DNA of 32,000 nt from Mycolicibacterium smegmatis (GCF_001457595.1 NZ_LN831039.1:1800001-1832000), one strand, 5' to 3'. Positions 12,544 through 16,859 are shown, numbered from the stretch's first letter. The notes: generated from the letters alone by a model not told the origin. Numbers and translations are program-made.

Positions 12544-13404
12544 ATGGCAGCCGTGGGTGCGATATCGCTGGACGGGAAGACCACGCGCGACGAGATCTTC
12601 GTCGACCTCAAGGAGCGGGTGGCGGCGCTGACCGCCGCGGGCCGCACACCGGGCCTCGGCACGGTCCTGGTCGGTGACGACCCCGGCTCACAGGCGTACG
12701 TGCGCGGCAAGCACGCCGACTGCGCCAAGGTGGGCATCAACTCGATCCGGCGCGACCTGCCCGCCGACATCACCACCGAACAGCTCAACGAGACCATCGA
12801 CGAGCTCAACGCCAACCCCGACTGCACGGGCTACATCGTGCAGCTGCCGCTGCCCAAGCATCTCGACGAGAACGCGGCGCTCGAGCGCATCGACCCGGCC
12901 AAGGACGCCGACGGTCTGCACCCCACCAACCTCGGGCGCCTCGTGCTGGGCAAGCAGGCCGCGTTGCCGTGCACGCCGCGGGGCATCGTGCACCTGCTGC
13001 GCCGCTTCGACGTGCCGATTGCAGGCGCCCACGTGGTGGTCATCGGTCGCGGCGTCACGGTCGGCAGGCCCATGGGCCTGCTGCTCACCAGGCGTTCGGA
13101 GAACGCGACGGTGACGTTGTGCCACACCGGGACCCGTGACCTGCCTGCGCTGACCCGGCAGGCCGACATCATCATCGCGGCTGTCGGTGTGCCGCACATG
13201 GTCACCGCGGACATGGTCAAGCCCGGCGCGGCCGTGGTCGATGTGGGCGTCAGCCGCGTCGACGGCAAGCTCACCGGTGACGTCGCCCCCGGCGTGTGGG
13301 AGGTGGCCGGTCACGTGTCGCCCAACCCCGGTGGCGTGGGCCCGTTGACCCGCGCCTTCCTGCTGACCAACGTCGTCGAAGCCGAAGAGTCGAAACTGGC
13401 GTGA
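12544..13404 (+). CDS. folD: Bifunctional 5,10-methylene-tetrahydrofolate dehydrogenase / methenyl-THF cyclohydrolase
   Basis: 286 aa, nearly collinear with M. tuberculosis FolD as remembered ([11 protein letters not shown]..., [61 protein letters not shown]). The start could be the GTG at 12553. Confidence 0.95.
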
Positions 13405-14471
13405 CGCCAAAGGAATTCGCCCGCAAGGTGTTCGCCGGTCAATGGCCGATCCTGGTGGTCGGCCTGATCTTCATCGCGGCGTTCGCCCTGGTGGTGGCGG
13501 GTTACTGGCGGCGCGGTGCGCTGGTCATCGGGATCGGCGTCGGCGTCGCGGCCGCGCTGCGGTTGGCGCTGACCGACGACCGGGCCGGTCTGCTTGTGGT
13601 GCGTAGCCGGGCGATCGACTTCGCCACCACGGCGACGGTGAGCGCGGCCGTGCTGTACATCGCGTGGACGATCGACCCGTTGGGCACCAGTTAGACGCGT
13701 CTGCTCGAACAGCGCCGCCCACTGCGCCGCGGACAACTGGCGGGGCAGGGAGTTCGGTGCTATCCCGTTGGCCCGCAACCAAGTGCGGGGCACCGGCGTG
13801 GGCAACCGTTGCAGGATCTGCGCCATGCCGTGTCCGCGTCCGGTGAACACGCGGTGCACCAGCGCCTGGTAACGCGCCCGGTCCGCGACGTCGACCAGCG
13901 GCCGGCTGCGGCGCGTGATGGTGAGCAGTCCGGCGTCGACCGCGGGCCGCGGCGTGAAGCTCGCCGCGGAAACCTTTCGGGCAAGGCCGAATTCGAACCA
14001 CGGCCACCACTGGGAGGTCATCATGGTGGCGCCGCCCACCGCGGCGCGTCGGCGGGCCACCTCCCACTGCATGAGCAGCACGGCCGTGGTCCAGCCCGGA
14101 CCGTGCAGCAGTCGCCGCAGGATCGCGGTGGTGAGGTGGAACGGCAGGTTGCCCACGACCACGTGGGGTGAGCGGGGCAGTGGGTAGCGCAGGAAGTCGG
14201 CGGCGACGACCTCGGTGGGCCGCGAGGCAGGCCCCGGGGCGGATCTCGCGGTGCGCTGCGCCAACCGCCGCGCGCGCCGCGCGTCGACCTCGACGGCGGT
14301 GAGCGGGCGGGCGAGTCGTTGCAAGGGTATGGTCAGCGCGCCGTCGCCCGCCCCGATCTCGATGATCGGACCGTTTGTGCGCGAGACGATTTCGACGATA
14401 TCGGCGATGACGCGCCGATCGGACAGGAAGTTCTGGCCGAGCTCGTGCCGGCCGTGATGTGGTGTGGACAC
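13311..14471 (-). CDS. erm(38): 23S rRNA (adenine-N6)-methyltransferase Erm(38), macrolide-lincosamide resistance; 386 aa including an about 126-aa non-homologous C-terminal extension
   Basis: Part of ORF 13311..14630. GTG at 14471, preceded by GGAGAA, gives exactly the 386 aa reported for Erm(38). Erm motifs present: [18 protein letters not shown] (SAM site), VVGNLPFH (catalytic N-x-P-aromatic), and a C-terminal [12 protein letters not shown] helix. Homology ends near 13692; the ORF stays open to 13311. Confidence 0.9.
13401..13694 (+). CDS. Small membrane protein, DUF3017 family (Rv3355c-like), 97 aa
   Basis: The GTG overlaps the folD stop (GTGA at 13401-13404). Three hydrophobic helices ([55 protein letters not shown]). 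Very strong G/C third-position bias in this frame. Confidence 0.75.
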
Positions 14472-14600
14472 GGTTCTCCGCGATCGCAGGGGCAAGGGCT
14501 GCGGCGGCGGAAGTGTCTGACGCAGATCCGCCGCTAGGCGGTGCGGGGCCGGATGAAGGCCGCGACCGGGGCGGCCATCGAAGTGATCGACATGACGGCC

Positions 14601-14640
14601 AGGGTAGGGACGGCGCACAGCGAGGCTCAAGCGAATTTTT
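14601..14640 (-). promoter_or_regulatory. Candidate WhiB7-type promoter of erm(38): AT tract, -35 TTGAGC, -10 TACCCT
   Basis: Minus strand reads AAAAATT (14640-14634) - CGC - TTGAGC (14630-14625) - 18 nt - TACCCT (14606-14601) - 7 nt - ATG (14593). An AT-rich tract 3 nt upstream of the -35 is the architecture described for WhiB7-dependent promoters. Confidence 0.4.
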
Positions 14641-14664
14641 CAGGAAATTGCCTGCTGGGAAATA

Positions 14665-14693
14665 TTGCCCGATGGGCAACAATTCTTTACGGT
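14665..14693 (+). promoter_or_regulatory. Candidate tetR promoter with overlapping palindromic operator
   Basis: -35-like TTGCCC (14665-14670), 17-nt spacer, -10 TACGGT (14688-14693, fits TANNNT), then 7 nt to GTG at 14701. The perfect palindrome TTGCCC-GAT-GGGCAA (14665-14679) covers the -35 and spacer. A related half-site GAAATTGCC lies at 14644-14652. Confidence 0.4.
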
Positions 14694-14700
14694 GGGCGGT

Positions 14701-15318
14701 GTGGGGCTCCGTGAACGCAAGAAACTCGACACCCGCAGGGCGCTCAGCGACGCCGCGCTGCACCTGATGTTCAAGCGCGGGGGACTGGAGAACGTGACCC
14801 GCGAGGACATCGCGGCCATGGCAGGCGTGTCGGTGCGGACGTTCAACAACTACTTCACCGGCAAGTACGAGGCGCTGGCGTACCGGCAGACCGAACGCAT
14901 GCGGCGCAGCATCGAACTCCTGCGGGAACGTCCCGCCGACGAACCGCTGTGGACCGCGATCACCGAGGCCGTGATCGCGCCGCTGCAAGAGGATATGGAT
15001 GACGTGTACGGCCAGGAGAACGCACTGCCCACACGTCGGCAACTCGTCGAGGTCCGCAAGATCCTGACGATCCCGCAGATCCGCGACGTCACCTTCAGGG
15101 GAATGTTCGACGAGTGGGTCGCGGTGATCGCCGAACGCACCGGCACCGACCCCGGCGACCGCTACCCGCGTCTGGTGGCCGCGGTGGTGCGCGCCGTGGG
15201 CGACGTCGCCATGGACGAGTACGCAGGCGCTGACCCACCGGTGTCGTTTCCGTCGTTACTCCGTGAGGGTTTCGCGGCAGTCGCCGCGGGACTTCCCGAA
15301 CCGAAGGCACGAGTATGA
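14701..15318 (+). CDS. TetR/AcrR family transcriptional regulator
   Basis: In frame with ORF 14665..15318. I prefer GTG at 14701 (VGLRERKKLDTRRALSDAAL...) because the TTG at 14665 and GTG at 14692 fall inside the putative operator and -10. HTH is TREDIAAMAGVSVRTFNNYF. The stop overlaps the next gene's ATG (ATGA at 15315-15318). Confidence 0.8.
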   Translation: MGLRERKKLDTRRALSDAALHLMFKRGGLENVTREDIAAMAGVSVRTFNNYFTGKYEALAYRQTERMRRSIELLRERPADEPLWTAITEAVIAPLQEDMDDVYGQENALPTRRQLVEVRKILTIPQIRDVTFRGMFDEWVAVIAERTGTDPGDRYPRLVAAVVRAVGDVAMDEYAGADPPVSFPSLLREGFAAVAAGLPEPKARV

Positions 15319-16859
15319 ACAGTTCAACGCACACAGATGTCGTCATCGTCGGGGCCGGGCCCAACGGCCTGCTGCTGGCCGGCGAACTGGCGCTGGCCGG
15401 AGTACGCCCCGTGGTGCTCGAGCGCCTGCCACAGCCCAGTCCCGAGTTGAAGGCCAACGGAATCGTCGGCCAGGTGCACCGGATCCTCGACATGCGGGGC
15501 CTGTACCAGTTGCTGACCGGATCCAGCGCCCCGCCCCAGCCGTTGGACGGCTACATCTTCGCCGGCATGCGCGTGCCGTTCACCGGTGTGGACGACAACC
15601 CGATGTACGGCATGTTCATCAAACAACCGCAGGTCGTGCGCCAACTCGCGGACTGGGTACGGGATCTGGGCGTGGAGATCCGGTGGGGCCACGGACTGGC
15701 CGATATGGCGCCGCGGCCCGACGGGGTGACGCTGAACGTCACCTCACCCACGGGGAATCACCGTCTGCACGCCACATACCTGGTCGGTGCGGACGGTGGG
15801 CGCTCCACGGTCCGCAAGGCCATGGGTGTCGGGTTCCCCGGCGTCACCTCTCCGGTCGTCGCGCGCGTGGCGCATGTCAGCATCCCCGACCGGCTGCGTG
15901 GAAGCGGCGCGTTGGAGGTCCCCGGATTCGGCCGTATCCCGTTCGGCCACAACCGTTTCGACCACGGGGTGTTCATGTACATGGAGTTCGAGCCGGGACG
16001 CCCGCTGGTCGGCACGCTCGAGTACGGCGCGCTGCTGCCCGCTGACGCTCCCGCGGTGACCGTGGACGAACTTCGGGACAGCGTGACGCGCATCCTCGGT
16101 GTCGAGGTGCCGATCGGACCGCCATCCGGGCCAGGGCCACACGCGTTGCGCCGCATCAACGGTCAGAACACCCGCCAGGCCGAGCAATATCGCGTCGGCA
16201 ACGTGTTCCTGATCGGCGACGCGGCGCACGTGCACTCCGCGGTGGGCGGCCCCGGGCTCAACCTCGGGATGCAGGACGCGACGAACCTCGGGTGGAAACT
16301 GGCCGCGGCCGTGCACGGTTGGGCGCCGTCAGGTTTGCTCGACACCTACCACGGTGAGCGGCACCCGGCCGGCGAGCGCGTGCTGATGCAGTCCATGGCG
16401 CAGACCGCGCTGCTGGCCGGCGGACCCGAAGTCGGCGCGCTGCGAACACTTTTCGGTGAGCTGCTCGCCACGACGGACGGTGCGGAACACATTGCGCACG
16501 TGCTCGCCGGTGCCGACGTCCGCTACGACGTGGGGGATGGGCATCCGCTGTCGGGGCGTCTGGTGCCCGAGGTGGTGTTCGACGACGGCCGCAGGCTCGC
16601 CGACCTCATGCGGGCCGCGCGGCCCGTGTTGCTCGATCTCGACGGCGGAGCGTACGCCGCAGCGGCGATCGATTGGCGTGACCGGGTCGACGTCATCACC
16701 GCGGCGGCTGCGGAACGTCCTGCGCCCGCGCTGCTGATCCGTCCGGACGGGTATCTCGCCTGGGCCGCAACGGGGTCGGGCGCCGATGAGCACCAGCGCA
16801 TGCGCCGCGCGCTCGGACGCTGGTTCGGCGAGGCGCACGCCAGCCTCGCGCACGCCTGA
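15315..16859 (+). CDS. FAD-dependent group A aromatic-ring/antibiotic monooxygenase with a C-terminal thioredoxin-like domain (PgaE/RdmE/Rox-like), 514 aa
   Basis: GxGxxG (DVVIVGAGPNGLLLAGEL), DG motif (LVGADGGRSTVRK), GD motif (FLIGDAAHVHSAVGGPGLNLGMQDATNLGWKLA), then GWAPSGLLDTYHGERHP and a C-terminal LLIRPDGYLAWAA segment typical of this subfamily. Confidence 0.8.
   Translation: MNSSTHTDVVIVGAGPNGLLLAGELALAGVRPVVLERLPQPSPELKANGIVGQVHRILDMRGLYQLLTGSSAPPQPLDGYIFAGMRVPFTGVDDNPMYGMFIKQPQVVRQLADWVRDLGVEIRWGHGLADMAPRPDGVTLNVTSPTGNHRLHATYLVGADGGRSTVRKAMGVGFPGVTSPVVARVAHVSIPDRLRGSGALEVPGFGRIPFGHNRFDHGVFMYMEFEPGRPLVGTLEYGALLPADAPAVTVDELRDSVTRILGVEVPIGPPSGPGPHALRRINGQNTRQAEQYRVGNVFLIGDAAHVHSAVGGPGLNLGMQDATNLGWKLAAAVHGWAPSGLLDTYHGERHPAGERVLMQSMAQTALLAGGPEVGALRTLFGELLATTDGAEHIAHVLAGADVRYDVGDGHPLSGRLVPEVVFDDGRRLADLMRAARPVLLDLDGGAYAAAAIDWRDRVDVITAAAAERPAPALLIRPDGYLAWAATGSGADEHQRMRRALGRWFGEAHASLAHA

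Follow-up and report, generated by a model that had tools for sequence, protein, structure and literature searches.

A leaderless upstream reading frame with a macrolide-arrest-type ending as a likely second regulatory input of erm(38) in Mycolicibacterium smegmatis

How does erm(38), the macrolide-resistance methyltransferase gene of Mycolicibacterium smegmatis, respond to the drugs against which it is directed? The prevailing literature credits WhiB7 for the induction of mycobacterial erm genes, and the regulation of erm(38-40) is "poorly characterised" according to the erm(55) preprint. We analysed a 32,000-nucleotide stretch of the M. smegmatis genome (GCF_001457595.1, NZ_LN831039.1:1800001-1832000; hereafter the window), in which erm(38) and its upstream region lie on the minus strand. 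A reading made from the sequence alone had proposed that positions 14472-14640 contain a promoter of the WhiB7 type, a leaderless upstream open reading frame (uORF) and a hairpin that could control the Shine-Dalgarno (SD) sequence of erm(38). Our analysis makes it likely that this region is a regulatory leader with two stacked inputs, a WhiB7-type promoter and a macrolide-arrest leader peptide that switches access to the SD sequence. The leaderless uORF, placed behind a WhiB7-type promoter, is a genuine erm leader and belongs to the ErmDL (+x+) class; drug-dependent stalling on it and an RNA switch would be the logic built on these elements. In this way erm(38) would probably detect the drug at the ribosome itself, in addition to a response through WhiB7.

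The regulated gene (13311..14471, minus strand; GTG start, 386 aa) corresponds to MSMEG_1646 (1741293..1742453). Genome coordinates equal window coordinates plus 1727982, and the folD and TetR neighbours agree with this offset. Upstream of the gene all promoter elements named by the sequence-only reading were found on the minus strand at the positions it had given: the AT-rich tract AAAAATT (14634..14640), which is a candidate WhiB7 AT-hook site, the trinucleotide CGC (14631-14633), the -35 hexamer TTGAGC (14625..14630), a spacer of 18 nt (14607-14624), the -10 hexamer TACCCT (14601..14606), and the heptanucleotide GGCCGTC (14594-14600), which is followed by the ATG of the uORF (14593-14591). 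The WhiB7 site has been described as an AT-rich sequence 3 bp upstream of the -35 element (ChIP-seq, PMC10727445; AT-hook requirement, PMC3905903). AAAAATT-CGC-TTGAGC, with its AT-rich sequence 3 bp before a SigA-type -35, matches this motif exactly. The match, together with the inclusion of 'erm' in the WhiB7 regulon of M. tuberculosis and M. abscessus (PMC10727445, PMC3905903), suggests that the erm(38) promoter is WhiB7-dependent.

The transcription start site (TSS) had been expected at about 14593. In their supplementary table, Martini et al. 2019 (PMC6448022) list a single TSS for MSMEG_1646, at 1742575, which with the above offset falls on window position 14593, that is, on the A of the uORF ATG and 7 nt after the -10 hexamer. 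The uORF and erm(38) share a transcript, since this only mapped MSMEG_1646 TSS lies 122 nt upstream of the erm start. A scan of 14300-14900 with a generic sigma-70 consensus returned no promoter; the consensus is too strict for mycobacterial promoters, so the blank is uninformative, and the mapped TSS settles the point.

The uORF, MSITSMAAPVAAFIRPRTA (14534..14593, minus strand), consists of 19 codons and a TAG stop (14536-14534), and its end is separated from the erm GTG by 62 nt. In S2 Table of Shell et al. 2015, obtained with a culture grown without drug, a ribosome-footprint 5' boundary lies on the same ATG base under the entry 'leaderless ATG Novel ORF'. Because ribosome-protected fragments start at the uORF ATG, the short ORF is ribosome-occupied in untreated cells, as the sequence-only reading had anticipated. 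With the TSS on the first base of the ATG and ribosome occupancy beginning at that base, it is a leaderless small ORF (sORF) in the usual sense. It is one of the 130 unannotated leaderless starts of Shell et al., where it appears anonymously; the words 'erm' and 'macrolide' are absent from the text of that paper.

Near its end the uORF encodes R-P-R (14543..14551, minus strand), a candidate macrolide-arrest motif; the predicted stall would place Pro16 (14546-14548) in the P site and leave the A site to Arg17. For ErmDL (MTHSMRLR...), the closest characterised peptide, cryo-electron microscopy and inverse toeprinting revealed that with erythromycin or telithromycin the ribosome arrests while Leu7 occupies the P site and Arg8 the A site; Ser4 and Met5 add to the arrest, and +x+ arrest is context-dependent (PMC8298421).

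The leader was compared with those of 80 related loci, one genome per species, whose methyltransferases are 54-76% identical to Erm(38); M. smegmatis is not among these 80. Almost all of them have an upstream short ORF that ends in x-R-x-R-(R/T/I)-x-stop, the stop being TAG followed by CGGCGG, and the frame with its R-x-R ending is kept in 11 mycobacterial and about 60 other actinobacterial loci. The promoter is conserved with it. When the sequences were anchored on the -10 element, 73 of 81 leaders displayed the full module of A-rich tract, 3-4 nt, TTG of the -35 (kept at the same distance from the -10), approximately 17-18 nt, TAnnnT and ATG/GTG, and the distance from TAnnnT to the uORF start was 6-8 nt (mode 7) in 73/81. 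In the 73 aligned leaders the A-rich tract has 62-85% A at four consecutive positions, in genomes of approximately 70% GC. The leaderless arrangement extends from Mycobacterium to Streptomyces, Amycolatopsis, Actinomadura, Microbispora, Rothia, Kocuria and Leucobacter.

For the specificity of this arrangement a composite signature was defined as an ORF of 8-30 codons that starts 6-8 nt after TAnnnT and ends in [RK]x[RK]xx-stop. It was present in 68 of the 79 orthologous erm upstream regions and in none of the 385 controls (0/79 reverse complements, 0/152 far-upstream and 0/154 downstream windows). On both strands of the 32-kb window (64 kb) it occurs once only, at 14593.

The position and the composition of the arrest motif are strongly constrained. 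R/K-x-R/K lies exactly 5 codons before the stop in 73 of 75 leaders. Codons were counted in 71 distinct uORFs (11-25 codons, median 13), taking the stop as position -1. The first basic residue (-6) is Arg or Lys in 69/71 of them and is encoded by AGG (40), CGC (13), CGG (10), CGT (2) or AAG (Lys, 4), and the second Arg (-4), also present in 69/71, nearly always by CGC. The middle residue is Leu, Ile, Thr or Pro, and the two residues that precede R-x-R are hydrophobic or Thr/Met. The turnover of the first-Arg codons between codon families, and to Lys, means that the amino-acid class has been kept, not the nucleotides, which indicates that selection acts on the leader peptide as well as on the RNA.

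Among the closest relatives the peptide is MLVSSMRLRTA (4 loci) or one of its variants MLVSGMRLRTA, MLTSSMRLRTA and MLVSSVRLRTA; other close relatives encode MSVTYIRLRIT, MSAATFFIRIRIA and MCACSMKLRSA. [quoted passage not shown] SMRLR of the relatives is identical to residues 4-8 of ErmDL. These comparisons support the proposal that R-P-R belongs to the +x+ class. R-P-R itself was also found in three Streptomyces leaders (L019, L032, L069).

The N-terminal parts of the peptides can be quite different. Six Streptomyces leaders (L014, L019, L022, L031, L032, L069) encode peptides of 23-25 codons with Cys/Ala-rich N-terminal parts, e.g. MSACSCACAACCCAACCAITRIRRS, and codon 2 is Cys in 23/71 leaders. 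At one locus (L049, from a metagenome-assembled genome) the promoter and the entire uORF up to the TAG have given way, approximately 200-300 nt upstream of the start of erm, to a foreign coding-like sequence that ends in ...GCTTGACAACTTATGCACCTGGGATGTC, with hairpin and SD intact. This looks like a mobile-element insertion, which would uncouple erm from the leader peptide.

The uORF stop is part of an RNA structure. Segment B, GCGGCGGA (14527..14534, minus strand), is SD-like, forms the 5' arm of a hairpin and has the G of TAG as its first base. The 3' arm, the anti-SD-like segment C, TCCGCCGC (14504..14511, minus strand), can pair either with B or with segment D, GCGGAGAA (14474..14481, minus strand), the SD region of erm(38), in which GCGGAG occupies 14481-14476 and GGAG 14479-14476. 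The proposed 8-bp hairpin with the stop embedded in it (14534..14504) is borne out as a predicted fold: B:C, with a loop of 15 nt, has a predicted energy of -17.7 kcal/mol when folded alone (z = -4.1; 0/200 shuffles as good). The alternative pairing UCCGC:GCGGA of C with the SD region, also put forward by the sequence-only reading, is borne out as complementarity and is the predicted fold once the 5' arm B is omitted (-14.1 kcal/mol, z = -1.7); no other window of the leader pairs as well with the SD region as C does (rank 0). Between C and D a middle hairpin, CGCAG-9 nt-CUGCG (14485..14503, minus strand), is predicted in all folds; its sequence varies among the relatives and it is enclosed when C pairs with the SD region.

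In 12 mycobacterial leaders TAG-CGGCGGA (and with it segment B), TCCGCCG (in segment C), GCG of GCGGAG and the erm GTG are invariant, whereas the B-C loop and the C-D stretch vary freely. An insertion of approximately 23 nt in L009 (CCTCCCCCGCAAGCGGGAGG), located between C and the SD, forms a perfect hairpin of its own and leaves the conserved segments unchanged. In nearly all of the 75 leaders (C)GCGGAG is the SD context, and segment C is usually CUCCGCCGC, which is complementary to both B (GCGGCGGA/G) and D (GCGGAG). In effect, segment B would be an SD mimic. The uORF stop is TAG in 65/71 leaders, and in 54/71 CGGCGG follows as the next 6 nt. The preference for TAG fits a stem constraint, as the G of TAG starts the stem. 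Five leaders with a TGA stop mostly add a G (TGAGCGGCGG or TGAGCGCCGG), which preserves segment B.

A third partner of B is segment A, the last uORF codons, which are CGC-CGC in most species. Over 75 leaders the mean duplex energy was -18.5 kcal/mol for B:C, -11.8 kcal/mol for C:D (-8.6 with other windows, -8.8 with shuffled C) and -16.9 kcal/mol for A:B (-11.2 with shuffled A). Wilcoxon p values for these comparisons were about 1e-11 to 1e-13 (C:D about 1e-11) without correction for phylogeny, and they overstate independence since the leaders are related. Outside the mycobacteria A:B (-18.2 kcal/mol) is iso-energetic with B:C (-18.6 kcal/mol), as a four-segment attenuator of the ermC type needs, and this balance explains the near-exclusive use of CGC-CGC. 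RNAalifold, applied to 12 mycobacterial and 29 other leaders, recovered B:C, plus a second helix in the long leaders. The helices are in register, with 79-89% of the cells paired (B:C 84%, C:D 89%) versus 34-61% after sliding by 1-3 columns. Between the uORF stop and the erm start, 10 of the 12 mycobacterial leaders have 62-71 nt and the other two, L009 and L011, have 94 nt, versus approximately 100 nt elsewhere.

Accessibility of the SD region was predicted with and without a ribosome on the uORF. In the window, GGAG has an unpaired probability of 0.46 in the free RNA; placing a ribosome at R-P-R gives 0.50, and placing it on the stop codon 0.08, the last value being so low because C then pairs with D. 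Across the family the mean for GCGGAG was 0.14 in the free RNA, 0.20 with the ribosome at R-x-R and 0.13 with the ribosome on the stop (p = 8e-4, 4e-6), the stalled state exceeding the terminating state with p = 3.6e-6.

The following mechanism would combine these elements. At the level of transcription, the first input, a SigA-type promoter with the WhiB7 signature would start the RNA at the A of ATG 14593. The second input would be translation of the leader: since the mRNA is leaderless, 70S ribosomes would begin at its first base and make the 19-codon peptide. When no drug is present the ribosome would reach the TAG and cover all of B, which starts inside the stop codon; C (UCCGCCGC, anti-SD-like) would then pair with D (GCGGAG) as both emerge, the SD would be masked and initiation at erm(38) hindered. 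If the exit tunnel holds a macrolide or ketolide, the ribosome would arrest at R15-P16-R17, with Pro in the P site and an Arg-tRNA unable to accommodate, as in ErmDL. As exactly three sense codons separate this predicted arrest site from the stop, the ribosome's leading edge (approximately +15 nt) would end at about the stop codon; 6-7 bases of B would stay free, B:C would form and D with the SD would stay open. The fixed spacing between motif and stop suggests that the position of the ribosome decides the partner of C. In the long leaders A:B would re-form after release and keep B from C. This latch is missing in the mycobacterial clade, where the OFF state would therefore depend on continued translation of the uORF, and the dynamic range may be modest there. 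The outcome would resemble an AND gate, in which translation stress, through WhiB7, raises the transcript level and the macrolide-specific stall licenses its translation. The direction and the size of the hairpin switch, as well as the effect of stalling on erm(38) translation, are what we infer from these data.

Several observations weigh against this interpretation. Within its clade no peptide diverges as far as that of M. smegmatis, at whose R-P-R the stalling would have to take place: it has 8 extra N-terminal codons and F-I-R-P-R in place of S-M-R-L-R. In the erm(38-40) clade the third Arg is replaced and A:B (-10.1 kcal/mol) is hardly different from shuffles (-9.1 kcal/mol; window z = 0.17). 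With A:B decayed in this way the switch may be weak in this clade or work differently; for the window, the classical four-segment model was rejected because A:B is no better than shuffles. Pair counting detected no significant covariation in A:B, B:C or C:D (shuffles matched the score in 59-419 of 500); the helix cores are invariant, so the case for pairing rests on complementarity only. The shift in equilibrium SD accessibility across the family (0.14 to 0.20) is in the predicted direction and too small to decide the ON/OFF logic. In the window RNA B:C is already formed without drug or ribosome, so that the OFF state hangs on a kinetic argument about ribosomes on the stop. Finally, erm(38) mRNA is reported to rise more than tenfold with macrolide, as cited in the erm(55) preprint, and this WhiB7 alone can explain.

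The last points bear on the alternative that survives best, although we regard it as unlikely: instead of opening the SD, the stalled ribosome could act mainly on RNA abundance, by protecting the 5' end from decay or by blocking Rho-dependent termination. The mRNAs of ermC and ermA are stabilised by stalled ribosomes. At erm(38) a stalled ribosome would sit within 50 nt of the 5'-triphosphate end, the leader is C-rich past the uORF stop, the thermodynamic backing for SD unmasking is weak, and induction has been reported, as cited in the same preprint, at the mRNA level. What points to control of initiation instead is the complementarity of CUCC/UCCGC to GCGGAG in nearly all members of the family. 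An intrinsic-terminator-like site (stem plus U-tract) was not found in the leader, which argues against attenuation by an intrinsic terminator and does not favour an effect on RNA abundance either. A search of Rfam yielded no family that matches the leader, the sole hit being a sub-threshold radC match inside the erm coding sequence (E = 0.21) that was taken as chance.

It is improbable that the uORF is translated without being a drug sensor, as just one of hundreds of leaderless mycobacterial sORFs that only bring ribosomes to the operon or exist because an ATG chances to lie at the TSS, and that WhiB7 alone drives induction. The number of such starts catalogued by Shell et al. and the prevailing view of mycobacterial erm genes would suit this explanation. 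It would leave unexplained why R-x-R-x-x-stop is kept across actinobacterial orders despite synonymous turnover of the Arg codons, at a fixed distance from the stop and flanked by invariant B, C and D, why the signature is missing from all controls, and why close relatives share SMRLR with ErmDL. Less probable still is a leader that senses arginine supply or general translation stress in the manner of the whiB7 uORF attenuator. Most members do end in R-x-R-R, with three Arg codons in four positions, and uORF attenuators that sense amino acids exist in mycobacteria. The mycobacterial clade, however, has two Arg only, the Lys that replaces the first Arg in 4 leaders fits +x+ and not Arg sensing, the regulated gene is a macrolide-resistance methyltransferase, and motif and context match a structurally characterised macrolide/ketolide arrest peptide (PMC8298421). 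That the 19-residue peptide works in trans as a small protein can practically be dismissed, for although it is translated, the N-terminal two thirds are unconserved in length and sequence (11-25 codons) and conservation is limited to the ending and to the RNA around the stop.

How does the two-input leader proposed here compare with known systems? With the ErmDL/ermD leader of Bacillus it shares the short ORF directly upstream of erm, the R-x-R near the end (S-M-R-L-R in the relatives) and alternative downstream hairpins that are predicted to involve the erm SD. It differs in being leaderless, without an SD1, in its WhiB7-type promoter and in the F-I context of its R-P-R; moreover, in the erm(38) family the motif keeps a constant distance of 5 codons from the stop, which itself belongs to the putative switch helix. 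The whiB7 uORF attenuator of mycobacteria senses ribosome stalling through a uORF, as the erm(38) leader would, and belongs to the same resistance network, but it acts on a Rho-independent terminator and is set off by many drugs as well as by starvation for amino acids, whereas the erm(38) leader has a candidate macrolide-specific motif and no terminator-like site. The leaderless polycysteine sORF attenuators (Canestrari et al. 2020) sense the supply of Cys-tRNA, and their peptide and RNA are unrelated to those of erm(38). The leader thus departs from the classical systems in its leaderless start, its WhiB7-type promoter, its stop-linked candidate arrest site at a fixed position and its SD-mimic design.

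Closer relatives are found among actinobacterial leaders: MGSPSIAVTRFRRF of erm(36) of Micrococcus luteus and MLISGTAFLRLRTNR of erm(X) (PMC11264731), and the putative erm(55)P leader MGITSVAVIRIRRF (July 2026 preprint). The erm(36) and erm(55) leaders have the same family ending, x-R-x-R-R-x-stop, and the erm(36) uORF is followed by TAGCGGCGG, exactly as at erm(38). Loci L021, L025 and L034 of our comparison encode peptides near-identical to the erm(36)/erm(X)/erm(55) leaders. Relative to these, the erm(38-40) clade has replaced the third Arg (R-L-R-T-A), lost the A:B helix and shortened the leader. Earlier work on erm(36), erm(X) and erm(55) presumes that the uORF is SD-led and makes no link to WhiB7 or to a leaderless start.

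The sequence-only reading knew of no described leader peptide for erm(38) and held that a translational layer of control would be new. No description of an erm(38) leader was found with the peptide strings, 'Erm38L' or 'MSMEG_1646', in a coverage that did not extend to Nash 2003, the original erm(38) paper, or to Ramu et al. 2009, the latter said to be a review that catalogues erm leader peptides. Dinan et al. 2014 regard mycobacterial erm(37) as 'a notable exception' to uORF control. The 2024 survey of erm leaders gives 'n/a' for erm38, since GenBank AY154657.2 starts directly behind the uORF stop; for erm39 it predicts an ORF that is too long and for erm40 an incorrect one (PMC11264731). The claim of novelty has to be qualified in two respects: the ORF had been catalogued, anonymously, in 2015, and leaders homologous to it have been reported or suggested for erm(36), erm(X) and erm(55).

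Some features of the erm(38) locus lie outside the leader. Residues 6-257 of Erm(38) correspond to Pfam RrnaAD (rRNA adenine dimethylase; E = 2.5e-35), and the last approximately 129 residues lie past the end of the methyltransferase domain (residue 257). The region that encodes this C-terminal part (13311-13700, minus strand) is antisense to a DUF3017 membrane-protein gene (13401-13694, plus strand; product of 97 aa, Pfam E = 3e-19) and to the 3' end of folD. The C-terminal 124 residues have been predicted to be disordered in a structure paper; the extension may be read-through into the convergent gene and not a functional domain. On the other side, the divergent TetR gene (14701-15318, plus strand) is leaderless too, its TSS 1742683 being window position 14701 (Martini et al. 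2019, PMC6448022), and an FAD monooxygenase gene (15315-16859) lies downstream of it. Between the TetR gene and the erm promoter there are two operator-like palindromes, TTGCCCATCGGGCAA at 14665-14679 and a degenerate copy at approximately 14648-14661. The second lies directly next to that promoter's AT tract, so erm(38), too, might be affected by the TetR protein. Only some relatives of the erm(38) locus have a TetR neighbour.

Possible traces of a similar organisation can be seen at two further mycobacterial erm genes. Upstream of M. tuberculosis erm(37) (Rv1988) the sequence AAATT-GGA-TTGATC-18 nt-TACGGT-7 nt-GTG has the same architecture (PMC11264731 Table S1), and the TSS at -28 has as its first base the G of that GTG (Shell et al., PMC4633059 S3 Table). 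The leaderless frame that begins there, VGIYAVTVRR..., is similar to VGITSIAVT.IRR leaders and not in register with the annotated erm(37) start; possibly it represents a leader remnant, truncated or overlapping. Approximately 65 nt upstream of M. abscessus erm(41) there is an ORF, MGIFMMVLRRVRPTVATPVGLVSAH (PMC11264731 Table S1), which contains R-V-R and begins like the erm(37) frame (MGIF..V.RRVRP). We tentatively suggest, with somewhat less than even confidence, that a WhiB7/WblC-type promoter, a leaderless arrest peptide with its +x+ site always five codons ahead of a TAG stop and an SD-mimic/anti-SD/SD switch starting within this stop codon form an ancient pan-actinobacterial module that acts as a two-input gate, with the erm(38) leader as its mycobacterial form and remnants at erm(37) (VGIYAVTVRR...) and erm(41) (MGIFMMVLRRVRP...).

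Inducible macrolide resistance limits the treatment of infections with rapidly growing mycobacteria, among them the M. fortuitum group (erm(39)) and M. mageritense (erm(40)). A drug-sensing leader would explain why the methylase is made preferentially under macrolides though many antibiotics switch the regulon on, and the leader peptide would predict which macrolides and ketolides induce. Leader deletions, changes in B, C or D and insertion-sequence (IS) insertions like that at L049 are candidate mutations for constitutive resistance. The family suggests that erm attenuators can be built on leaderless mRNAs, and the erm(38) leader would revise the 'WhiB7 only' picture of mycobacterial macrolide resistance. 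If the two-input gate is true, the costly rRNA methylase would be made only when translation stress comes from a macrolide; if the pan-actinobacterial module is true, clinically important inducible macrolide resistance would have an overlooked translational layer.

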